Of a stretch of 22,786 nt of DNA, positions 3,165-21,545 are shown one piece after another. The notes below the pieces were generated by a model, which saw nothing but the letters and a program-made list of their open reading frames with translations, was not told the DNA's origin and did not search any database. Made by a program: the position numbers and the translations under genes. The stretch spans positions 1 through 22,786 of the IMG/VR virus record IMGVR_UViG_2547132281_000007. One strand, written 5' to 3'. This DNA is from a virus (taxonomy: Duplodnaviria; Heunggongvirae; Uroviricota; Caudoviricetes). The first letter of the stretch is position 1, and every line of letters begins with the position of its first letter.

Positions 3165-4265
3165 TCATTCCATTTCGAAATCATCAATCCTCACTTCAAG
3201 CTCCAGACTGGTTGTAAAACCGTTATCGGGGCTGACGGTATGCGTCAGAGTCGTAATGGTCCATTCCGCATCATCTATCGGCTGTTTAAAGCCACTGACT
3301 TTCACTGGCATTTCCGTGTAGAGATCTGCCCGACCTTCTGCCAGTTGTAGCGAGAATGACGCAACGCCGCGTTGCAGGCGTTCCCACTGCATTTTCGCCG
3401 TCCGTTCGGCGTTGCTCCGGTTGGCATAGGTGCGATTAAGTACCAGCACGTTTTCATCCGTACCCACCAGGTAATCGCCCTGCTTCGCTTCCGGCTCTTT
3501 CTTCTGCTTCTTAGTTCTGCGCTTACGCTTCACCGTGGTGCTTTCTTTCTTCGCAGGTTCGCGGGTATGCAACCAGCTGGCAATTACGCCCGTGTAGGCT
3601 CCGCGATCTGCCAGGGTAAATCGGTGACTGTCGCCGTCCTTGCGTGTGATAGTGATCACTGGCAGAGGTTTACCAGTGGCGCTTTTGCCCTGCCCCTGCC
3701 GGATGAATAACAGATTGCCATTTTTCACCGACGCGATGGCACCGTACTGTCGCGCCAGCCGCATCAGAAAACTGCCGTCACTCTCATTAGTCTGGTCTAT
3801 ATGCTCCACGGGCTTATCCGACAGGTCTTTACCCAGTGCCATCTTCAGCTTGTGCCGCGCGGCTATTTCCTTCACCACTTCCCCGACGGTGGTCTTATGC
3901 CACGATTTTTCACGGCGGGTATTCAGCGTTTCCCGAAAATCAGCACTTCGCGCCCGGATAGTCAGGCGGTCCGGTGCGCCAGTGTGTTCAATCTCGTCCA
4001 CCGTGAATGCTCCTTTCGGGAAAAGCGACTGCCCCTTCCAGCCCAGCGCCAGCGTAATGACCGCACCACGGCGCGGCAGCACGATTTTTCCGTCGGCGTC
4101 GTCCAGCTCCAGATCAAGCTGGTCCGCTTCAAAGCCCCGATTGTCCGTCAGCGTCAGACTCATCAGGCGGTTATCCAGCACAGTGGTGATATCCTTACCC
4201 TCAATACTGATGCTGAATGCCGGAGTTTTGTTGCCTTTGTTAAGCAGTTCAGAGCTGAAATTCAC
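3165..4265 (-). CDS. P2 gpD-like tail protein
   Basis: 366-aa ORF with motifs LTLTDNRGFEADQLDLELDD and FTVDEIEHTGAPD, recalled as characteristic of P2 gene D product. Overlaps the upstream U gene by 4 bp. Confidence 0.9.
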   Translation of the reverse strand: MNFSSELLNKGNKTPAFSISIEGKDITTVLDNRLMSLTLTDNRGFEADQLDLELDDADGKIVLPRRGAVITLALGWKGQSLFPKGAFTVDEIEHTGAPDRLTIRARSADFRETLNTRREKSWHKTTVGEVVKEIAARHKLKMALGKDLSDKPVEHIDQTNESDGSFLMRLARQYGAIASVKNGNLLFIRQGQGKSATGKPLPVITITRKDGDSHRFTLADRGAYTGVIASWLHTREPAKKESTTVKRKRRTKKQKKEPEAKQGDYLVGTDENVLVLNRTYANRSNAERTAKMQWERLQRGVASFSLQLAEGRADLYTEMPVKVSGFKQPIDDAEWTITTLTHTVSPDNGFTTSLELEVRIDDFEME

Positions 4266-4741
4266 GACAGCAGCCCTCCCACCGTTTTACTGATATCGCT
4301 TAAGGCAGACGTTGTCGTATCCTGCAAATTATTCAGCTGCGCACTGAGATCACCGAACATATCGGACAGGGATTCATCCACCCGTTTGAGCGACAGGGTG
4401 AACTCAATCCGGCGCGGCATACCATCGCGGAAAAACTCCGTTTTAGTCTGATTCAGTCCCTCAATCACATACATGCCGTAAATCGTGCCGCTGCCTTCAA
4501 TCAGGGGCCATGCTTTCCCCTGTTCTGCCATCTGCTCCAGTGCCAGCAACGACAGCCTGCCGCCTGTTATTTCCGGCATAAGAACACCGGAAAGCGTCAG
4601 CATGTCGTTTTCCGGTCCCAGAAACTGCGTGGACGGACGTCGGTTTACCCGACTGTTTGCCGCATGTCGCCAGCTGCGTTGATACTGCAGTTCCTGATAC
4701 GGAACGGTGCGCAGCATAAACACGTACAATCCCAGCACCAT
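4262..4741 (-). CDS. P2 gpU-like tail protein
   Basis: 159-aa ORF MVLGLYVFMLRTVPYQELQ...; size and sequence recalled as matching P2 gpU, with translational coupling to D. Confidence 0.88.
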   Translation of the reverse strand: MVLGLYVFMLRTVPYQELQYQRSWRHAANSRVNRRPSTQFLGPENDMLTLSGVLMPEITGGRLSLLALEQMAEQGKAWPLIEGSGTIYGMYVIEGLNQTKTEFFRDGMPRRIEFTLSLKRVDESLSDMFGDLSAQLNNLQDTTTSALSDISKTVGGLLS

Positions 4742-4782
4742 CAGCCTGGAAAAGAAATCCGAGTTCTAATCGCTGGAGAAAA

Positions 4783-5040
4783 TTGCCTGATGGAACCATC
4801 ATTCAAATGGGAATATCAGCATCAGGGCCATTAGGCTCACCTGTAAATATCACCCTGCCGATATCTTTCAGCAATACCAATTATTGTGTTGTTGCATCGT
4901 ACGATAATGCACGGTCAGGTGTGTCAACAATGGTTAGTTTTGCAGCGTTACCTGTTTCACCATCGCAATTTTCCCTGATGTCATCTGTGACTGAGCAAGG
5001 AATAAATCCTTTTGCTTACTGGATTGCTTTTGGAGATTAA
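4783..5040 (+). pseudogene. orphan tail-fibre C-terminal cassette (alternative variable domain, 5'-truncated)
   Basis: Open frame from 4720 (TTG start annotated at 4783), on the opposite strand to the tail genes and immediately followed by a tail-fibre-assembly gene. It has no N-terminal shaft domain and no upstream crossover site; the product resembles distal tips of phage side tail fibres. Confidence 0.5.
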
Positions 5041-5043
5041 TAA

Positions 5044-5463
5044 ATGGATAGATACTTCTATTCACAAAAAGAAAATGGTTTTTTTACCGATTTAAATAAA
5101 GCACCTTCAGATGCTGTTGAGATAACCACGGATGAATGGCTGTTACTACTGGATGGTCAGGATAATGGCATGAAAATAGTCAGCAATCAGGAGGGATATC
5201 CGGTTTTGACAGAGCAACCACCTTTATCAAAAGAAAACCTTATTGCATTGGCGGATTTGAAAAAAAGAAAACTTATTAATGAAGCCAACGAGCACATGAA
5301 CAGCAGACAATGGCCAGGTAAAGCGGCTATTGGTCGTCTGAAAAGTGAGGAACTGGCGCAATATAATTTATGGCTGGATTATCTGGACGCACTGGAACTG
5401 GTTGATACCTCCAGTGCGCCAGATATTGAATGGCTTACGCCTCCGGCAGTTCAGGCCAGATGA
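5044..5463 (+). CDS. tail fibre assembly protein (alternative cassette, Tfa/U' type)
   Basis: 139-aa ORF with the C-terminal motif LVDTSSAPDIEWLTPPA typical of Tfa chaperones; sits 3 bp after the orphan fibre tip and converges on and overlaps G. Confidence 0.7.
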   Translation: MDRYFYSQKENGFFTDLNKAPSDAVEITTDEWLLLLDGQDNGMKIVSNQEGYPVLTEQPPLSKENLIALADLKKRKLINEANEHMNSRQWPGKAAIGRLKSEELAQYNLWLDYLDALELVDTSSAPDIEWLTPPAVQAR

Positions 5464-6040
5464 CATCCGGCGCGGTGCTGGTATCTGTTGCAGTCACCGC
5501 GTCAATGTAATCCAGCACGGCGTTAAGTCGGGTTGTTTCTGTCTGCGTCAGTTTACGTGCGGCCTGCAATTTCAGCTGAATCAGACTGATGGAAGCCATT
5601 GCAGCATCAATCAGTGACTGACGCTGTGCTTCTGCCGCGTCTACTGCGGCGCTATGCTGTGCCTCAGTATCGGTCACCCATTTCTCACCATCCCATTTAT
5701 CGTATGGCGTTAATGGGGCGATAGTGGTTGTATTTTCAGGGTAATCACCCGGAACTGTGATTTCTTTGGTATCTCCCGTTTCGGTACTATAGACAACTTC
5801 ACCGCGATGGTCTGGCACATATTCCCATGAGTTTAAATCTGCCGAACGACAGATTGCATAACCAGCTTTATGTGTACCTGGTGCATCCAGACAGGAACAT
5901 GCCGGGATACCGACGCCGACAGCGAGATATTCAGTTGATGTAGAAATATATTCCCGCGTTTCACCATCATAATTATAAACGGTAATATCTCCCGCTTTTA
6001 TGGCAATGAGTTCGCTATTTAATACAGCTTTATTCATCAT
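5435..6040 (-). CDS. tail fibre assembly protein (P2 gpG-like)
   Basis: 201-aa ORF with the Tfa C-terminal motif DTSTAPDVIWPELPEA; immediately downstream of H with a 4-bp overlap. Confidence 0.85.
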   Translation of the reverse strand: MMNKAVLNSELIAIKAGDITVYNYDGETREYISTSTEYLAVGVGIPACSCLDAPGTHKAGYAICRSADLNSWEYVPDHRGEVVYSTETGDTKEITVPGDYPENTTTIAPLTPYDKWDGEKWVTDTEAQHSAAVDAAEAQRQSLIDAAMASISLIQLKLQAARKLTQTETTRLNAVLDYIDAVTATDTSTAPDVIWPELPEA

Positions 6041-9096: not shown

Positions 9097-9442
9097 TCTC
9101 TGCTCCTGTTGATACGGAAAGGGACACAGGCACACCGTTATTCCGCCGCCCGGTCAGCTCCACCACCATAGAACCGTCAAAGTTGCTGTTGATGGTGATG
9201 GAATCCAGCGTCAGCCGTGGCTCCCAGCGACTCAGCGCCACATACACTGCCGACATGACCTGCAGGCGTAATGCCGGATTTTGTGGCTGATCTATTAAAA
9301 CCGACAGGAGGGAACCATATTCCCGGCGGGCAATGCGGCTACCCTGCGGTGTCAGCAGAATGTCCCGCACCGACTGGCGCAGATGATCAATATCAGTAAT
9401 GACTTTGCCGCTGGTATTGTTCATCCCGCTATAAAGCGTCAT
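9083..9442 (-). CDS. baseplate protein (P2 gpW-like)
   Basis: 119-aa ORF MTLYSGMNNTSGKVITDIDHL...GSRIARREYGSLL, recalled as matching P2 gpW; the 3' end overlaps the J start. Confidence 0.88.
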   Translation of the reverse strand: MTLYSGMNNTSGKVITDIDHLRQSVRDILLTPQGSRIARREYGSLLSVLIDQPQNPALRLQVMSAVYVALSRWEPRLTLDSITINSNFDGSMVVELTGRRNNGVPVSLSVSTGAENGSD

Positions 9443-9564
9443 ACCGGGCCTCCGGTTGTATCGCCGCCTTTCAGGACGCCAGTATGCTGATGCGCATCAA
9501 CAACAATCCCGTTAGAGCTCATCGCTCCGCCGCCCTGGGTATCCGTTCTGGTCCGGTGCGCTGT
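9439..9564 (-). pseudogene. remnant 3' end of spike gene V (about 40 codons)
   Basis: Short open frame ending ...GGGAMSSNGIVVDAHQHTGVLKGGDTTGGPV* whose TGA overlaps the W ATG (ATGA), as V/W do in P2. It carries an HxH-type motif and is truncated by an in-frame stop at 9565-9567, with no N-terminal part present. Confidence 0.4.
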
Positions 9565-9593
9565 TCAACCGTGGGCGCAACAAAGCCGATAAG

Positions 9594-10436
9594 GTGGACA
9601 TCGACCTGTCCCACAACAATCTGGCCCCCGGCCTGCTGTGCGCAGACGGGCAATACCGCCAGATAGTCACCGTGGAAGATGCGGTGCGCGGCGGCTGTAA
9701 CCTGTTCGACCTCGACCAGTTGCGCATGGAGTACAGCCCGGACGAATACCAGAACCTGCTGATGTGTGAGTTCGTGGACGATCTCGCGTCCGTGTTCCCG
9801 CTCAGCGAGCTGCAGGCGTGCATGGTGGACAGCTGGGAAGTCTGGACCGACTTTCATGCACTGGCCCTGCGCCCGTTTGGCTGGCGCGAGGTGTGGATCG
9901 GTTATGACCCGGCAAAAGGTACGCAGAACGGCGACAGTGCCGGATGCGTTGTGGTGGCTCCGCCAGCCGTGCCGGGCGGTAAGTTCCGCATTCTTGAGCG
10001 TCACCAGTGGCGCGGGATGGACTTCCGCGCCCAGGCGGACGCCATCAAAAAACTGACCGAACAGTACAACGTGACCTATATCGGCATCGACTCGACCGGC
10101 GTCGGTCACGGGGTTTATGAGAACGTGAAAGCGTTCTTTCCTGCCGTCCGGGAGTTTGTCTACAACCCCAACGTTAAAAACGCGCTGGTACTCAAGGCCT
10201 ACGACATTATCAGCCACCGCCGTCTGGAGTTTGACGCCGGGCACACCGACATTGCGCAGTCATTCATGGCAATCCGTCGCGCAACCACCGCCAGTGGCAA
10301 CCGCCCAACCTATGAAGCCAGCCGCAGCGAAGAAGCCAGCCACGCCGATCTGGCCTGGGCAACAATGCACGCACTGTTTAACGAACCACTGCAGGGCGAG
10401 TCCGCCAATACCAGTAATATTGTGGAGATTTTTTGA
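9594..10436 (+). pseudogene. terminase large subunit (P2 gpP-like), C-terminal fragment only
   Basis: 280-aa ORF with a GTG start; motifs ...VWIGYDPAKG...DSAGCVVVAPP...KFRILERHQWRGMDF...YIGIDSTGVG...SHADLAWATMHA match the nuclease half of P2 terminase. The reading frame opens only at 9516, so the N-terminal ATPase half (about 300 aa) is absent. Confidence 0.75.
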
Positions 10437-11464
10437 TGGGAAAGAGTAAGAAGAACCGCGCTGCGTCGACGAACCAGATCCAGCATAAAAGTCAAACTAC
10501 AGCCGAAGCATTCAGCTTCGGTGATCCCGTTCCTGTTCTGGACCGCCGCGAACTACTGGACTATGTGGAATGCGTACAGACAGATCGCTGGTATGAGCCG
10601 CCAGTAAGCTTTGACGGACTGGCGCGCACCTTCCGCGCCGCCGTGCATCACAGTTCACCAATTGCGGTGAAATGCAACATTCTGACCAGTACCTACATCC
10701 CCCACCCGCTGCTCAGCCAGCAGGCTTTTTCACGTTTTGTGCAGGACTATCTGGTATTTGGTAACGCCTACCTGGAGAAACGCACGAACCGCTTCGGTGA
10801 AGTTATCGCCCTTGAGCCTGCTCTGGCAAAATACACCCGACGCGGGTTAGACCTGGATACCTACTGGTTTGTGCAATACGGTATGACAACCCAGCCGTAT
10901 CAGTTCACGAAAGGCAGCATTTTTCATCTGATGGAACCGGACATTAACCAGGAGATCTACGGCCTGCCCGGTTATCTTTCTGCCATTCCGTCCGCCCTGC
11001 TCAATGAGTCCGCCACGCTGTTCCGACGCAAATATTACATCAACGGCAGCCATGCAGGCTTCATCATGTATATGACCGATGCCGCGCAGAATCAGGAGGA
11101 TGTGAACAATCTCCGCAACGCGATGAAAAGTGCCAAAGGTCCTGGTAACTTCCGCAACCTGTTTATGTACTCGCCTAATGGCAAAAAAGACGGGCTTCAG
11201 ATCATCCCGTTGTCAGAAGTCGCAGCGAAGGATGAATTTCTGAACATCAAGAACGTGAGCCGGGACGATATGATGGCGGCGCATCGTGTACCGCCACAGA
11301 TGATGGGGATTATGCCGAATAATGTTGGGGGATTTGGGGATGTGGAGAAGGCTAGTAAGGTATTTGTACGCAATGAGTTAAATTCACTCCAACAACGAAT
11401 TAGAGAGGTGAATAATTGGCTGAATGATAAAGTAATAAAATTCCAAGCCTATTCGTTATCATGA
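10433..11464 (+). CDS. portal protein (P2 gpQ-like)
   Basis: 343-aa ORF overlapping the P stop; FSFGDPVPVLDRRELLDYVEC and SATLFRRKYYINGSHAGFIMY motifs recalled as matching P2 Q. Confidence 0.9.
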   Translation: MMGKSKKNRAASTNQIQHKSQTTAEAFSFGDPVPVLDRRELLDYVECVQTDRWYEPPVSFDGLARTFRAAVHHSSPIAVKCNILTSTYIPHPLLSQQAFSRFVQDYLVFGNAYLEKRTNRFGEVIALEPALAKYTRRGLDLDTYWFVQYGMTTQPYQFTKGSIFHLMEPDINQEIYGLPGYLSAIPSALLNESATLFRRKYYINGSHAGFIMYMTDAAQNQEDVNNLRNAMKSAKGPGNFRNLFMYSPNGKKDGLQIIPLSEVAAKDEFLNIKNVSRDDMMAAHRVPPQMMGIMPNNVGGFGDVEKASKVFVRNELNSLQQRIREVNNWLNDKVIKFQAYSLS

Positions 11465-11533: not shown

Positions 11534-12718
11534 CTATTCCTTATTCAAATCAACCAACTTGTCCATAAGAGTTTCATTGTTATACCCCTCATGCATTTCA
11601 GTTCGTTTCCCTGAAAATTTTCTTTTATGAAACTCATTTATATCAACATTAAGATGTTCACAAATTTGCTCAAACTCATCTAGATAGAGAGGATCAACAT
11701 AATAATTATCTGAAATCAATTTTTTTTTGCGCATTTCTTCGTAAGTTGATTTCAGAGTGTAACGTACTGGGCATAATGCCTTTATTATTTCATGAATAAA
11801 CTCATCATTGTTGACCCCATAATTTCTTAGCTTTAAAAATAGCTTTTTTCGATCATCGGCAATTTTAAAGCAAGCATCCGCAAACTCTAACTTTTCAACA
11901 CCACCAGCAACATAAAAGTCTAATAAAGCCTTCCTTTGAAGGCTAATATCTTCCTCCGGTTTATAATCGTTAACTTTAACACTTCTAATAGATTTCTCTT
12001 TATTTTTTCTACGAGCTGAAATAATATCACTTGGGATGCTAAGAGACATTGCAAGCAATGCCATAAGAATCAAACAAAGAAAAGCATATACAAACACCCT
12101 TATTATTTGATACCACCATTTACTTGTTGTAAAAACCTCACTCCAAAAAGATTCAGTCTGAGAGTCGCCACTCATTTTGAGAATATCAAACCCTTTTACA
12201 CCAGCGACTTTACCAACCAACGATATAACTGGACTCGAATTCTCACTCCCCAAAACAAAAAAGCTCACCCGAAATTTTTCGTCAGGCTCTATGATTACCG
12301 GATTGAAAACCAAAGAATCATTACTAATCCTTGGCTTTATATTGTCCTTTAGATACACACTGTCTGTAATAATTGTAGGTTTCTCTACAACTTCACCTCC
12401 AGAAACTCTTAACGTTAGTAATGATGAATCATCAAAGTCACCTTTCCTTATAACAGCATTACCAGTATTTTTAATTGTTACATTTATTAGCCATAAGTTT
12501 TTTTTGGCTGTTCTGAGTTCTTCCCCATTATATGAAATAGATAATCCTCCGACAGCTTGATGAATATCAAGAACTTTTGTCGGCTGCATTAGTTCAATCG
12601 AAATATTCCCTTGTTTTTCATAATAGAAGCCAACATAAATCGCCACAACAAAACTAACTAAAGCTACTACAGCCATGAATCCAGCAGACTTTACAAATCC
12701 CCATATCGAACTGAGCAT
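11534..12718 (-). CDS. hypothetical 2-TM membrane protein (prophage cargo; candidate superinfection-exclusion or abortive-infection factor)
   Basis: 394-aa ORF in AT-rich DNA. N-terminal TM helix (FMAVVALVSFVVAIYVGFYY), a beta-rich central domain, a second TM (WWYQIIRVFVYAFLCLILMALLAMSL) followed by a positively charged stretch (RRKNKEKSIR), then a helical C-terminal domain. No family recognised. Confidence 0.6.
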   Translation of the reverse strand: MLSSIWGFVKSAGFMAVVALVSFVVAIYVGFYYEKQGNISIELMQPTKVLDIHQAVGGLSISYNGEELRTAKKNLWLINVTIKNTGNAVIRKGDFDDSSLLTLRVSGGEVVEKPTIITDSVYLKDNIKPRISNDSLVFNPVIIEPDEKFRVSFFVLGSENSSPVISLVGKVAGVKGFDILKMSGDSQTESFWSEVFTTSKWWYQIIRVFVYAFLCLILMALLAMSLSIPSDIISARRKNKEKSIRSVKVNDYKPEEDISLQRKALLDFYVAGGVEKLEFADACFKIADDRKKLFLKLRNYGVNNDEFIHEIIKALCPVRYTLKSTYEEMRKKKLISDNYYVDPLYLDEFEQICEHLNVDINEFHKRKFSGKRTEMHEGYNNETLMDKLVDLNKE

Positions 12719-12781
12719 TTTTCGAACTACCCCTTATCTTATCTCATGAGTTGTTTTAGGATATTACACTATTTGCGCGCG

Positions 12782-12800
12782 CTCGTATCCCCGCCACGCC
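12782..12800 (-). other. candidate cos site (cohesive-end sequence of P2/186 type)
   Basis: Minus strand reads GGCGTGGCGGGGATACGAG followed by CGCGCGC. Recalled P2 cos is GGCGAGGCGGGGAAAGCAC and 186 cos GGCGTGGCGGGGAAAGCAT, about 14-15 of 19 matches. The block is GC-rich between two AT-rich genes. Confidence 0.5.
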
Positions 12801-12845
12801 TGCCCGCTTTGTGTAGTGGTTTTCATGCAGGTGCCTGATCCACGC

Positions 12846-12869
12846 AAAAGCCCGCCAGTTCTGGCGGGC
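12846..12869 (-). terminator. putative Rho-independent terminator downstream of the DUF2971-like gene
   Basis: + strand AAAA then gcccgcc-agttct-ggcgggc; on the minus strand this is a GC stem-loop followed by UUUU. Confidence 0.45.
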
Positions 12870-12935
12870 CTTAGCAAAAACGATCCTCAAACGGTCATGC
12901 AAATTCAGGCAGCATAGGCATGCACTGTTGTTAGG

Positions 12936-14054
12936 TTAGTTCGTAATGCCAATTTCCTTCAAAACTTTAGCCATTTCCGTCTGACTTAACTTGTTCCTGA
13001 ACAAAGTGAAATTTTTCATTTTTTCCGCTCGTTGCCCTTTTGAAATAGTAATCTTTCCTGATGCTGATAACTCAGAGTCAAAAAAATAACATATTGTTGA
13101 ATTTGAATTCTCCATATTTGACTTGATACAATTCCATATGCTTTCTTTTTTCATTTCACACATTCTAGGACCAAAAATGATCCCTTTAACAACATTAGCA
13201 TCATGATGAAAAATATGTCCAATATTTCGATTTACGCGTCTTTGAACATGCCGCTCACTCCCTATTCCTGCATTTGCCTCCGGAATAAACATTCGATATT
13301 CAGCTTCATATCTCCAAAATCTATTTTTAGTTAAAAATAACTCTGCAACATTTGCGCTTGGGTCTAGAAGTGAAACCTCTTTAGCCTGATTACTATATTT
13401 TATTGGCTTAACTGGAAAATTAAATTTATCTGATGAAAATAAATTTTCTCTTAGCTTCATTCCAGTATAGGGTATACCATCAATATTAAAATCCTGCGTT
13501 TCATAAATCACAACACAACCACTAAAGCCAGCAGCATAATGCGCCCACATCATACGATCTAACGCATTAGCTGAAAATGACACACTGAATACTGCAGGAA
13601 CTATTTTCCTATACAACCTTTCTTTGATACTGTTCTCGCAAAGTGAAACCAAATATTGGCGTGGTTCAGGAATATTTCCATAAATAGCAGAATTAATCAC
13701 ATTGATAGGAAGTAAACCATCATCTATGATCTTACGTATCTCATCAACGTGTGAGTCAAACAGGCTATCTAATGACTCAATGCTACTTTTTATTTTTTTT
13801 CCTCTAAAAATACGATTCAATCCCTTATGTATTTTCAAATTACTCAAATCCAATATGTGACTCAAATTTTTATAGGATTTATCGCAAGGAGAACGCAATA
13901 AAATATCCCATAATTTCAATTTATTATCGAAGCGATAATCTATATTGAGATCATTGGGATCATTCAATTGCGCAGGAGCGGAAAAATATAATTCATTATA
14001 ACGAATAGCTTTCTCGAAGAAGAAGTCCGGACGGTAATACTTGAAAAGATACAT
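12936..14054 (-). CDS. DUF2971-like hypothetical protein (prophage cargo at the P2 old/tin position; candidate anti-phage effector)
   Basis: 372-aa ORF in AT-rich DNA with an AGGT RBS. N-terminus MYLFKYYRPD...FSAPAQLNDPND and internal MMWAHYAAGFSGCVVIYE resemble my recollection of the DUF2971 signature (LYKY..., FNDPxE, MWshYa). Positioned between the replication/tum module and cos. Confidence 0.65.
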   Translation of the reverse strand: MYLFKYYRPDFFFEKAIRYNELYFSAPAQLNDPNDLNIDYRFDNKLKLWDILLRSPCDKSYKNLSHILDLSNLKIHKGLNRIFRGKKIKSSIESLDSLFDSHVDEIRKIIDDGLLPINVINSAIYGNIPEPRQYLVSLCENSIKERLYRKIVPAVFSVSFSANALDRMMWAHYAAGFSGCVVIYETQDFNIDGIPYTGMKLRENLFSSDKFNFPVKPIKYSNQAKEVSLLDPSANVAELFLTKNRFWRYEAEYRMFIPEANAGIGSERHVQRRVNRNIGHIFHHDANVVKGIIFGPRMCEMKKESIWNCIKSNMENSNSTICYFFDSELSASGKITISKGQRAEKMKNFTLFRNKLSQTEMAKVLKEIGITN

Positions 14055-14438
14055 GACATTACCTATAACATTGCAATATTAATAACCGTATGAAAACAGT
14101 TTGATTGTATTGATAATATCCTATTCTGCATATACCACAGTGTAAAGATTAATTTTAAATACCATATCCAACAGTAAATCATGTATCGACCGCCAGATAA
14201 GAAGCTTTTGAAAAACTTGGACGATAATTAATCAAAAGCTCTTCCCATCCTGTATCCTCTATCTCACTCTTTTGGACATTGAAAGAAGCCCCTCTGATCG
14301 GGAATGATTGTTTCCAGCGTTTGACCACGATATACAATATGATATTTGATGTCTTTTGATCAGATGGCTAACGCCTCGCATAGCTCGTTGTTCAACCTTG
14401 CTGACGCCAGAAGCAAGTTCAGACGCCAGCAACGTTTC

Positions 14439-14672
14439 TTAATGCAGCCAGCTGTCGTCTTCCCACACCTTCTGCATAATTTTCATCACTTGTTTCCTTT
14501 CTTCGTCCAGTTGCAGTCCGGTCAGTTCCACACCGTTAGAGCTACCTTTACGGATACGAATTACCGTTTTGGGATACAGGGGGCGCAGATTGCGGTAAAG
14601 CTCTGATTCAAGGGCGTCTAGGGTAGACTGGCTAATCTTCTGCTCTTTATCGATCATTATTTCAATGCGCAT
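14439..14672 (-). CDS. DinI-family protein
   Basis: 77 aa from the ATG at 14672, with a GAGGGG RBS 6 nt upstream. MRIEIMIDK...LDALESEL...VWEDDSWLH aligns in recall with E. coli DinI (MRIEVTIAK...AIDALAGEL...ETWESADDWF). The annotated ORF extension to 14744 has no support. Confidence 0.75.
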   Translation of the reverse strand: MRIEIMIDKEQKISQSTLDALESELYRNLRPLYPKTVIRIRKGSSNGVELTGLQLDEERKQVMKIMQKVWEDDSWLH

Positions 14673-14912: not shown

Positions 14913-14932
14913 CACTGTTTATATTTACAGTA
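14913..14932 (-). promoter_or_regulatory. LexA box (SOS operator) upstream of the tum/DinI-like operon
   Basis: Minus strand TACTGTAAATATAAACAGTG is CTG-N10-CAG, matching consensus TACTGTATATATATACAGTA at 17 of 20 positions. It lies about 40 bp upstream of the AGGAGG RBS and is flanked by promoter-like hexamers (TTTACA ... TATACT). Confidence 0.6.
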
Positions 14933-15024: not shown

Positions 15025-17439
15025 TTAATACAGGTTCCGCCACTTATCATCTTCCTGCAAACGCTGGTTCCGATAGAAAATACGCAGGCCTGCTCCTGAC
15101 GGAATGCTGCCGCCGCGAAGGAGTAAATCGACCTCTTTCTCGCTGCCATCAAATCTTCTGGACTTCAGTTCATAGACGAGCTGCTGTCGTTGATGGTCTG
15201 TAATTCGCTGTTTGTAGTCTCTACGCCGTTTCGGTTTCACCAGGCGTAACCTTGCAGCCAGTTCCCGGCGTTCTTTTTTGTTCATACTGTGCAGGTAATC
15301 GTGCAACTCCTTGTCATCCATACGGGTGATATCCGTTCTGGTATCCCCATCAGCTGATTTGTCTTTCCCTTGTTGGTACAAATTTTCAGCAAGGGGACAG
15401 TTATTGCCACGAGTCCAAGGGGCGCAAGCGCCCTGGTCGGCTGCCGCCTCCTGAACGTCAACGGCCTTACGAACCATTTTCCACTTCACTGCATGAGTGC
15501 AGATCTTGCCCTCTGCAATGGGTGACCAGATGCCATAAATACGAATACCGTGATCGCCATAGGCGGTCGGCTCTTCGTTAATTTCATAAGCAGTTCTGAT
15601 GAGGTGATATTTACGGGGAACCAGTACACCTCCCTGCTTCATGATATAGGTGGCAAAACAACCAGCATCAGCAGCAGCCAGAATGGCATCAAGGCGCGGG
15701 TTATCCAGTACCGGCACACCTGCTTTTTTGTCACCCTGCTGCCTTGCCGCCTGACCAGCCAGCAATCGCAGTTCACGGTAAGCCTGACGCCCCGGAATAC
15801 CAAAGAAGCGGAATTGCTGAACACGATGCAAAGACGCCCAGGCATTCACGTATTCAGCGTTATCACGAAGAGATTTACCCGTTTCCTTGCTGATCTCGCC
15901 AGCCAGACCACGCCCGTCAATGTTCTTACTGATGTATTTCGCTATGTAGCTTGTCGGCGTTCCTTTGCGCGGGTTAATCAGCTCAGACTTAAAGCGCGGC
16001 CCCGTGTTATTGCCCAGCTCCTCGCGGTCTTCACGGATAGCAAACTTACGCAACAATGCAGTAATGGCGCGGCGGTCTTTTTTGCGCATGAAACACAACA
16101 GGTGCCAGTGAACTGTGCCGTCGTGATGCGGCTCAGCCACCCGCACGCCATACCAGCGCAACCCGGCTTTGTGCATCGCCTTACGAAATGCAGCAAACAT
16201 ACCGACCAGATAATCGCTGCTTTGTCTTACCGTCGCGTTTTTCCAGGTCGGGTTGGGTCTGCCGTTATTTAGCGTGGAATGGAAACGTGACGGACAGGTA
16301 ATGGTGTAGAAAACGGCGCAGTCACCGCGCATTTCCGCGATAAGCTCCAGACCTTTAACACAGGCCATCATCTCATTGCGGCGATGCGCCGGGTTGCTGC
16401 AGCTGGCGTTTACCACATCTTCCATATCCAGCGCGTCTCCGTCTTCGTTCACCAGTTCATGAGAACGGAAAAACTCCAGCGACTTACGGCGCTGCTCACG
16501 TTTATGCATCACAGCTTCATAGCTGACATAGGGAGATGCTTTTTTGCTGACCAGGCAGACAGCACGCAACTGCTCTTCCCGCCATTCGCAACGCATCTTC
16601 CACAATTTCCGATACCACCAGTCGGCGCACAGCATACGCGCCAGCGAGCCCGGAATGAGTTCATAGGGCACTGGTTTACGGCGGTTTCTTTTCCGACGGA
16701 GTTGCTCAAACGCAGGCGGGATGACATCCAAACGTAGGGTTTCCGCTGCCACCCTTTCCCATGTCTTGCGGATTTCTTCTGGCTTAACATCATCGGTGGC
16801 GTACAAATCACCACAAGCGGCATCAAGACACATGCTCATATGCGCAGCGACAAGGGTAGACAGGCGTTTCACCTGATCCTGACTCATTTCAGGCAGGATC
16901 AGCAGGCCGTCCAGCCCTTCATGGCTTGCCATAAAGCGAAAAGAAGTGGATAGCTGACTGTCGCGTACATGCTCCAGTCGTTCCAGACATGGCTTAATCG
17001 TCTCACGCAGATAGCGAGAATAAGCCTTTGGCCTGCCCAGGCTGCTGAAATATTCGATACGTTGCATCAGCGGCTTGCTGATGTGGGAAGGCTGGGCGCT
17101 GACGTCCGCCAGAATGACCATGTCCGGGTTAAAACGCTGCTGTTCATGCGCCAGCTTTGCCCGACTAATGAGCTTATCCTGCTCCATTTCACGCTGGACA
17201 GGATCACGGGATTCATTAAAGAAATAACGCTCCCAGACCTGCTCACTCAGTGCATCGCGGCGCAGCTGTTCCTGCTCATTATCGGCAGCGTACAGAGTGA
17301 TCAGGTTTGAAAGTGCAGACTCCAGCGCAACTTCCGCCGGGTCCAGATACGGGTTAATGGCCTTTTTCGGGCCGTTCCATGAAAATGCTACAGCGGCCTC
17401 GTTAAAGCCGCTAGAGTTGCTCATATCGTCATGACTCAT
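15025..17439 (-). CDS. replication initiation endonuclease (P2 gpA-like, rolling-circle)
   Basis: 804-aa ORF of the size and family expected for P2 gpA (recalled as about 760 aa), directly downstream of dam with an ATGA overlap. Confidence 0.88.
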
Positions 17440-19241: not shown

Positions 19242-19490
19242 ATGTTGAACCCGGTTGAAAGAGAGCGTATAGAGCAACTTGAAAACGAGATCTCCAGTCT
19301 TCGCGATGAGGTTGCTGTTCAACGAATTCTTGTTTCAGGTCTGATCCACTCCTTATTTCGAACTGACTCAGCAAATCAATCAGCATTTTTTGAGCTCCTC
19401 CGCGAAGAATTAAACAAACTTCCTTTAGGTTCGGTTAAACAACAAGAATTCACTCATCTGATACAGACACTGATAGATCGTTACCGATAA
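19242..19490 (+). CDS. hypothetical small coiled-coil protein (opposite strand inside early region)
   Basis: 82-aa ORF with an AGGAA RBS 8 nt upstream of the ATG and heptad-like sequence (ERERIEQLENEISSLRDEVAVQRIL). The overlapping minus-strand ORF 19123..19386 is low-complexity and less protein-like. Confidence 0.4.
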   Translation: MLNPVERERIEQLENEISSLRDEVAVQRILVSGLIHSLFRTDSANQSAFFELLREELNKLPLGSVKQQEFTHLIQTLIDRYR

Positions 19491-19705
19491 ATATTTCGCC
19501 GATAACGTTCAAGAGGTGATGTCTTTATACGCATCACTTCTTGTACTTTTTCACCACGTATAAAGGTTCCATCCTTTAGCGTGAAAAAGTAGCTACCATC
19601 GCCCGACAACGACGGATAGCAACTGAGCAAATCATCTTCAGGTACTGAATAATTCTCCCCTCTGTAACGAAAGTGATAAACCACTTCATTTTCTGCCGCA
19701 TACAT
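19481..19705 (-). CDS. hypothetical protein
   Basis: 74-aa ORF (MYAAENEVVYHFRYRGENYSVPEDD...) overlapping the 3' part of ORF 19576..19872 in another frame; only one of the two is likely to be real over the shared region. Confidence 0.3.
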   Translation of the reverse strand: MYAAENEVVYHFRYRGENYSVPEDDLLSCYPSLSGDGSYFFTLKDGTFIRGEKVQEVMRIKTSPLERYRRNIYR

Positions 19706-19872
19706 TTGGACTTTCTCCGTTTCCTCGTGGTCAATTCAGACAGCAATTCATCTTGTGAACGGCACGGATGCCAGCGTTTACCATCCTCACCCATGATCCA
19801 GCCGTGACCGTAGTGCATTGCCGGGCTTTGTTTTACCAGCAGCGATGCAAATGATGGTTCTTTCGTCAGCAT
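19576..19872 (-). CDS. hypothetical early protein downstream of cII (186 fil/dhr position)
   Basis: Internal ATG at 19872 just downstream of the cII stop (MLTKEPSFASLLVK...). The C-terminal third looks low-complexity, so a frameshift or the overlapping ORF may be the true reading. Confidence 0.3.
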   Translation of the reverse strand: MLTKEPSFASLLVKQSPAMHYGHGWIMGEDGKRWHPCRSQDELLSELTTRKRRKSKCMRQKMKWFITFVTEGRIIQYLKMICSVAIRRCRAMVATFSR

Positions 19873-21353: not shown

Positions 21354-21545
21354 ATGCTTGGTAAGGTATTTTTTGTGGTTTTGTCATGTTCTTTGTTATT
21401 AAACCCACTAACTACCTATGCTAGAAATTATCCCTGCTCAGGGAAAAAGGGAGGTGTTTCTCACTGTACCTCAGATGGCAAATTCGTTTGCAATGATGGA
21501 ACTATTAGTAAATCCAAAAAAATCTGTACTAAAAACTCACGATAA
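21354..21545 (+). CDS. small secreted cysteine-rich protein (moron between cI and int)
   Basis: 63-aa ORF with a strong GGGAGG RBS, a predicted signal peptide ([23 protein letters not shown]) and a 40-aa mature region with 4 Cys and many Lys; AT-rich. Confidence 0.45.

Follow-up and report, generated by a model that had tools for sequence, protein, structure and literature searches.

In phage P2, the interval from A/orf91 to cosR holds the genes tin and old, and merely 187 bp separate cosL from Q. Variable genes found between gpA and gpQ of P2-like prophages are regarded as the cargo of the P2 hotspot (Rousset et al., 2022). Among 18,150 such loci, Table S5B of the same study lists as system #65 a single gene, "DUF2971", with 65 occurrences, and its Table S5A gives cassettes of DarT plus Macro from the same hotspot in other strains. 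A second described system with this domain is Aristaios from the Lactococcus plasmid pUCCL641, a DUF2971 protein of 316 amino acids (aa), which has been validated as a single-gene, abortive-infection-like (Abi-like) system and for which a block of phage transcription or protein production and all-or-nothing resistance have been reported (Grafakou et al., 2024; PMC11381338). DUF2971 has been placed in the ADP-ribosyltransferase (ART) superfamily, in the vicinity of DarT and AbiGi; the His of motif I is poorly conserved, and there are a conserved Tyr and an ExE motif. Here we describe a DUF2971 gene from Escherichia coli, which is located at positions 12936-14054 of a stretch of caudoviral DNA of 22,786 nucleotides (IMG/VR record IMGVR_UViG_2547132281_000007); this whole stretch is referred to as the window.

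Our reading, to which we give a probability of about 0.6, is that the gene product is a DUF2971-family defence enzyme that works without a partner, that the gene is carried as swappable cargo by a P2/186-like prophage, and that the enzyme would act by infection-activated ADP-ribosylation. It should be noted that the gene and its family are already catalogued and that the gene is therefore a known candidate rather than an unrecognised system. Its coding part consists of

12936-14054, minus strand: gene of the DUF2971/PDC-S31 protein (open reading frame, 372 aa, ATG start)
14061-14064, minus strand: AGGT, a Shine-Dalgarno-like element 7 nt upstream of the ATG, read from the sequence

The open reading frame (ORF) is identical to the call in the PGAP annotation (WP_000280510.1, "DUF2971 domain-containing protein"). 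The GC content of the gene is 0.333, and that of its third codon positions (GC3) 0.287. In the A gene the corresponding values are 0.528 and 0.566, and the part of the window that lies outside the hotspot has a GC content of 0.50. In a comparison of three alleles (99.8%, 97.9% and 85% nucleotide identity) the frame was not disrupted and the ratio of nonsynonymous to synonymous substitution rates (dN/dS) was 0.12-0.17. Because selection is purifying and the frame unbroken, the ORF is a functional protein-coding gene. An earlier note made from the letters of the window (in the following, the original prediction) had already placed a 372-aa protein at 12936-14054, in strongly AT-rich DNA and with its own ribosome-binding site. 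All three statements were borne out, the first by the ORF and the identical PGAP annotation, the second by GC 0.333 and GC3 0.287 versus about 0.50 in the backbone, and the third by an AGG element 7 nt 5' of the ATG.

The full 89-position Pfam model of DUF2971 (PF11185) matches residues 169-255 of the protein with 21.7 bits (E = 5e-4), which is 0.3 bits under the gathering threshold of 22.0 bits. The N-terminal 36 residues are among the most conserved of the family, and the DUF2971-like N-terminal signature noted beforehand is indeed a strongly conserved family motif, but the Pfam match is a central one. Four hidden Markov models of the PADLOC class PDC-S31 match the protein in all, the best being PDLC04990 (E = 1e-23; residues 3-312 of 372 and model positions 9-236 of 259), and phrog_1762 matches with E = 3e-29. 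In Enterobacterales and Pseudomonas there are 58 full-length homologues, most of them with a precomputed PF11185 match and the name DUF2971, and every one of 108 relatives retrieved with a profile matches both DUF2971 (PF11185) and PDC-S31. The homologue profile finds 6,807 representative clusters (50% identity) at E ≤ 1e-3 and only 23 at E ≤ 1e-30, so that within a very large family the E. coli protein stands in a small subfamily. Distant relatives align with profile positions 1 to about 315 only, the last approximately 55 residues being specific for the subfamily.

Beyond DUF2971, PDC-S31 and phrog_1762, searches of Pfam, PADLOC, PHROG and NCBIfam yielded nothing, NCBIfam being without any match, and a DarT match was found in Pfam and PADLOC neither for the protein nor for the 108 relatives at E values up to 1. 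None of these relatives matches an AbiGi model either. A confident match to a housekeeping or phage structural family, which the original prediction had named as grounds for giving it up, did not appear in Pfam, PHROG or NCBIfam. On the other hand, its statement that there is no match to a named defence family has to be corrected, because the protein matches PDC-S31 of PADLOC (E = 1e-23) and is listed as system #65 by Rousset et al. (2022), and because Aristaios shares the domain. PDC-S31 as such is not mentioned in the literature that we searched.

The AlphaFold2 model of the protein is confident (mean pLDDT 93.1, pTM 0.86) and shows a compact globular protein without a disordered segment. 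It is predicted to consist of an ART-like core (approximately residues 1-315) with a helical insert (approximately 46-148) and a C-terminal tail of about 55 aa. In its predicted fold the protein conforms to the ART type, for which the split beta-sheet of an NAD+-binding core is characteristic. Foldseek found no match for it in the PDB or in BFVD, and profile searches with alignments of 52 and 108 sequences found none among the PDB sequences; there is no solved structure of the family. When the model was compared with known folds, the scores were as follows:

DarT from Mycobacterium tuberculosis: 7.7
DarT from Thermus: 7.2
Tpt1 from yeast: 7.0
DarTG from Thermosipho: 6.6
KptA: 6.3
DarT1 from E. 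coli: 6.2
TreX: 5.7

SopF, PARP15, ART2.2 and scabin scored lower. An unrelated arginine deiminase reached 7.1 in the same list, and the DarT/Tpt1 signal must therefore be considered moderate. With moderate confidence, then, the predicted fold appears closest to the nucleic-acid ARTs DarT and Tpt1, which agrees with two independent published analyses, one placing DUF2971 near DarT and AbiGi and the other assigning an ART fold to Aristaios.

Conservation of residues can be compared with the motifs of ARTs. In 108 sequences of 15-27% identity the residues D32, Y173, G179, Y220, K243, E250, E252, G291 and G295 are invariant. E250-x-E252, which is invariant also in alignments of 52 and 28 sequences, is part of an invariant W-x-Y-E250-x-E252-x-R motif and lies in the AlphaFold2 model at a helix/strand boundary (245-250/252-259); it fits the [QE]-x-E motif of the predicted catalytic glutamate and agrees with the ExE motif published for DUF2971. 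S157-x-S159 is conserved in the subfamily, and S157-x-S159 and Y173 may correspond to motif II of ARTs (Tyr or S-x-S), an assignment based on the order of the residues in the sequence.

The gene is located in a variable slot of a prophage. The window is 100% identical to positions 320094-342879 of E. coli TW14425 (NZ_CP127265.1), a human stool isolate, and covers the entire extent of a P2/186-like prophage inserted beside ybjL, with ogr at one end and the integrase gene at the other. On the minus strand the order is A (15025-17439), LexA box, an ORF of 62 aa, a DinI/Tum-like gene, the DUF2971 gene, a hairpin, cos and the portal gene (10436-11464). The elements around the DUF2971 gene are

14915-14930, minus strand: LexA-box consensus CTGT-N8-ACAG, CTGTAAATATAAACAG; the sole match in the window, 0.19 being expected by chance
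14439-14672, minus strand: DinI-like (Tum-like) backbone gene, the upstream border of the cargo slot (Pfam DinI, E = 7e-23; PGAP)
14055-14367, minus strand: cargo-specific 5' region, AT-rich (GC 0.34), which travels with the gene (homology break; allele alignment)
14118-14146, minus strand: promoter-like TTTACA-17 nt-TAGGAT (consensus scan, 9 of 12 matches)
12846-12872, minus strand: intrinsic-terminator-like hairpin (GC stem, GAAC loop, UUUU) 64 nt past the stop codon (dG -27.9 kcal/mol, z -5.5)
12782-12800, minus strand: cohesive-end 19-mer of cos, GGCGTGGCGGGGATACGAG; exact position, the published cos of the P2-like phage SEN8 being identical

The cos of the window, GGCGTGGCGGGGATACGAG, resembles the cohesive end of P2, GGCGAGGCGGGGAAAGCAC. 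As had been expected from the letters, the gene is thus found between the replication/tum module, represented by the DinI/Tum-like gene (14439-14672), and cos (12800-12782), which is the A-to-cos interval equivalent to that in which P2 carries old and tin.

How variable the slot is becomes evident from a comparison of complete E. coli genomes, 27 of 5,426 of which have the DUF2971 gene, in every case on the chromosome, while the flanking backbone is found in about 1,250. Approximately 2% of P2-like prophages thus have the gene, and the sources of the carriers are varied (river water, wastewater, chicken and cattle). The comparison confirms that the locus is a slot for variable cargo, as the note had supposed, and being variable and located between gpA and gpQ the gene is P2-hotspot cargo in the sense of Rousset et al. 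(2022). On the DinI side, backbone homology ends at 14367/14368 in about 515 genomes; the whole region is common to only 26 genomes. The cargo unit extends from about 12927 to 14367 (1.44 kb, GC 0.336), and 313 nt of it are the 5' region. On the other side, a segment of 166 bp (12770-12935) with the hairpin and cos is present in 1,249 of the 5,426 genomes, and the hairpin is invariant across five loci. The terminator is therefore a backbone feature of the slot and was rejected as a feature of the cargo. It had originally been described as a likely terminator of the gene's own (12846-12869); hairpin and U-run are real, but they do not belong to the gene, which uses a terminator that the backbone supplies shortly ahead of cos. 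An automated terminator scan did not pick up the hairpin at 12846-12872, which was revealed by direct folding.

Immediately past cos, at about 12776, the sequences of all alleles diverge fully. The slot between cos and the portal gene contained seven different gene sets at the eight DUF2971 loci examined:

window: a protein of 394 aa with two transmembrane (TM) helices
L002: an AAA ATPase of 778 aa
L003 and L018: DprA
L004: an AIPR protein
L005: a DUF4145 protein
L016: the reverse transcriptase and effector of retron St85
L017: two hypothetical proteins and IS421

The A-to-Q "hotspot" of P2 is consequently two cargo slots, which are split by cos and the terminator hairpin and assort independently. 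Two slots that recombine independently explain the mix-and-match of defence genes at these loci, where known defence systems (retron, DprA, AIPR and AAA ATPase) accompany the DUF2971 gene. Two further observations were made in these loci. Between DprA and the DUF2971 gene there is an unannotated gap of about 850 bp (L003 4152-5000; L018 3652-4500), in which the phosphoribosyltransferase (PRTase) that belongs to the validated DprA-PRTase system may be located, be it as a pseudogene or as a gene missed by the annotation. And a group II intron (ltrA) has inserted between A and the unit of the small ORF and the DinI-like gene at 6537-8024 of L016, which is from E. coli O68:H12 strain 97.3.

For more distant homologues (33-63% identity), five contexts were looked at, and these have no neighbour in common:

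lambdoid prophages: two homologues alone in moron regions, with the replication genes on one side and the region of the Q antiterminator on the other, one of the two lying beside GIY-YIG and HNH proteins
an integrative and conjugative element (ICE): one homologue
an island with SIR2+DUF87, CcdAB and a broken integrase: one homologue
a Pseudomonas chromosome: one homologue

Since neighbours differ in the eight E. coli loci as well as in the five distant contexts, the distribution shows no obligatory partner, and the DUF2971 gene is a single-gene module without a conserved partner.

This holds also for the 5' region, in which an upstream small antitoxin was considered and rejected. The sole candidate is the relic of a small ORF, which is intact (86 aa) only in the 85% allele (L005 6297-6557); the 97.9% allele (L004 6120-6630) has stop codons in it and the allele of the window a deletion of 121 bp. 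It is decayed in 26 of the 27 carriers, and the 86-aa ORF has no match in Pfam. With respect to transcription, both hexamers of the promoter-like site are kept in the 85%-identity allele L005. It should be noted, however, that sites of such a score are not enriched over shuffled sequence.

The LexA box is perfect to the consensus and is located upstream of the 62-aa ORF (phrog_698) and the DinI-like gene. LexA box, phrog_698 ORF and DinI-like gene resemble the SOS-controlled tum unit of phage 186. The unit has the same orientation as the cargo gene, and the sole thing between them is a hairpin after the DinI stop codon, which is without a U-run, so that, judged from these signals, SOS-driven read-through from the LexA-boxed unit into the DUF2971 gene is possible.

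What could the function of the protein be? The gene is variable cargo in the old/tin slot, is found in the company of defence systems and has no housekeeping or structural match, which is why a reading as defence is reasonable; an anti-phage role of the E. coli DUF2971 gene is plausible. In uninfected cells the protein would be inactive. Because no antitoxin is needed, we propose that the helical insert or the C-terminal region may hold the protein off. A cue from the infecting phage would then switch it on, and the activated protein would use NAD+ to transfer ADP-ribose to a target, which, as the analogies to DarT, Tpt1 and Aristaios suggest, could be DNA, RNA or part of the expression machinery. 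This would stop the phage from expressing its genes or from replicating, and the infected cell would probably be sacrificed (abortive infection), as reported for Aristaios. A more specific version, namely that the protein is an antitoxin-free, self-regulated relative of DarT that ADP-ribosylates a target novel among defence ARTs (nucleic acid or a transcription component) and is maybe boosted by SOS via the Tum-like operon, is put forward only tentatively and is appreciably less likely than the general one.

Several points weigh against a defence ART. In strand 1 the protein has K5, which is Lys or Arg in most of the aligned relatives, and R8, and is without the canonical His of motif I. There was no DarT or AbiGi match in Pfam and at the sequence level no match to a PDB chain. 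A tblastn search of phage genomes gave one weak partial match, and no sequenced phage isolate in the collection has the gene. The identity of Aristaios to the E. coli protein is probably low, the two being likened by domain family and not by alignment, and tblastn of plasmids gave no match from Lactococcus. Of eight additional P2-hotspot systems that were tested, three were active (Rousset et al., 2022), and an experimental test of any E. coli DUF2971 gene was not found in the literature searched. Finally, the P2 hotspot also holds partition systems (in about one quarter of P2-like phages) and cytolethal distending toxins (CDT; in about 2% of hotspots), and position alone is therefore no proof of defence.

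Three other functions are conceivable for the gene as such, and distribution, company and intactness in a decayed prophage make each of them less likely than defence. The one that survives best, although we regard it as unlikely, is that the gene is a selfish addiction or toxin element, or that its product is a catalytically dead protein with an ART fold, which for example binds nucleic acids, so that there is no anti-phage benefit based on ADP-ribosylation. This reading would be in line with the Lys in place of the motif I His, with the only moderate fold match and with the fact that enzyme activity is a prediction in the papers on DUF2971 and Aristaios. However, ExE and several polar residues are invariant across very distant relatives, as in an active site, and the strong phage resistance conferred by Aristaios speaks against this reading. 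Moreover, there is no cognate antitoxin, the small upstream ORF being decayed in 26/27 carriers, and in the absence of a maintained antitoxin classical toxin-antitoxin addiction is unlikely.

Slightly less likely still is an enzyme in the service of the phage, which, during lytic growth or induction of the P2-like phage, would modify the RNA polymerase of the host or put its defences out of action and might be switched on by SOS through the LexA-controlled Tum-like operon upstream. There are phage-encoded ARTs that retool the host, namely Alt, ModA and ModB of T4, and the DUF2971 gene is co-oriented with and downstream of the LexA-boxed unit of the small ORF and the DinI-like gene, with an intervening hairpin without a U-run. 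But a gene of use in lytic growth is hardly expected in only about 2% of P2-like prophages, where it is freely swapped for unrelated cargo, nor in an ICE and in chromosomal islands, which have no lytic cycle; and the prophage has lost most head and several tail genes while the DUF2971 gene is intact.

That the protein is a lysogenic-conversion toxin or virulence factor, an ART-like protein hitting eukaryotic cells or competing bacteria rather than phages, appears improbable. It is true that CDT is found in about 2% of P2 hotspots, that about 18% of the DUF2971 proteins in a Legionella survey were predicted effectors, and that the strain of the window was isolated from human stool. However, carriers come also from river water, wastewater, chicken and cattle, the companion genes across cos are defence systems, and no conserved secretion or delivery partner is located near any DUF2971 homologue. 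In addition, the model is compact and globular without a disordered segment, and the nearest folds are those of intracellular nucleic-acid ARTs, not of secreted protein-modifying toxins.

The last alternative involves the neighbouring gene:

11534-12718, minus strand: second AT-rich cargo gene (GC 0.34) in the cos-to-portal slot, encoding 394 aa with two TM helices (ORF)

A two-gene system, in which of the DUF2971 protein and the adjacent two-TM protein one is the sensor and the other a membrane effector, would fit the fact that the two genes, both rich in AT, are neighbours on one strand of the window and that abortive-infection systems often have TM effectors, but it was rejected and is effectively excluded by the distribution, because cos and the backbone terminator lie between the genes, partners vary, the two-TM gene is present in only 3 of 27 DUF2971 carriers, none of the distant homologues in the five contexts has a two-TM neighbour, and Rousset et al. 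(2022) list the two as separate single-gene systems (#65 and #130).

The two-TM gene, for which PGAP gives a version of 380 aa with the start at 12676, is a separate defence candidate. Its product matches phrog_29747 (E = 1e-25) and had no match in Pfam or PADLOC. It corresponds to system #130, "2 TM", with 19 occurrences in Table S5B of Rousset et al. (2022), and is absent from the table of tested systems.

Some observations concern the remainder of the prophage, which is defective: most head genes and several tail genes have been lost, with the cargo genes being intact. At 9439-10436 of the window, a C-terminal fragment of the baseplate gene V abuts a terminase fragment without its N-terminus, from which it follows that the head and lysis genes between V and P were deleted. 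In the region of 4262-5463, the annotation has neither tail sheath nor tube genes between the tail genes (3165-4741) and those of the tail fibre. At 5435-5463 there is an overlap of two tail-fibre assembly genes, which are encoded on opposite strands, with a short gp53-like fragment nearby, and this region (4783-6037) resembles what is left of a tail-fibre cassette that was either invertible or duplicated. In the early region a truncated Fil pseudogene is found beside a hypothetical gene on the opposite strand (19242-19872), and between cI and the integrase gene there is a small YdcA-family gene in an AT-rich stretch (GC 0.36; 21354-21545). Possibly both are accessory insertions as well.

DUF2971 is a large family with one validated defence member, Aristaios. 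The E. coli member is located in the best-studied prophage defence hotspot and would lend itself to rapid genetic and biochemical tests with standard coliphages, which could show how a toxin of ART fold stays harmless without an antitoxin. If the more specific version given above is true, the gene would be a tractable model for the mechanism of the whole DUF2971/Aristaios/PDC-S31 family. Its status as a candidate is already catalogued, and the value of the gene is that of an E. coli model for the mechanism of a large family.

How, then, does the gene compare with the systems described? System #65 of Rousset et al. (2022) is essentially the same protein (372 aa), a ~98% allele of the window gene, and is a catalogue entry only, which the table of evaluated defence systems in that paper does not include. 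Likewise, PDC-S31 of PADLOC is a computational candidate class and not a validated system. From the DarT of DarTG systems the DUF2971 protein differs in its length, which is greater by about 160 aa, in its large helical insert and in its additional C-terminal sequence, and the macrodomain antitoxin DarG of these systems has no counterpart beside the DUF2971 gene, be it in the window or in any homologue context. With Aristaios it shares the single-gene organisation, the DUF2971 domain, the predicted ART fold and the location on a mobile element, whereas the host of Aristaios is Gram-positive and its protein 56 aa shorter; most distant relatives lack the C-terminal tail, about 55 aa long, that the E. 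coli subfamily has. With old and tin of P2 there is no homology, Old being an AAA/OLD nuclease and Tin unrelated, and these genes are transcribed from near cos toward A, whereas the DUF2971 gene runs toward cos. The slot between A/orf91 and cos is nevertheless the same, and in P2 it is occupied by non-essential lysogenic-conversion genes that exclude other phages.

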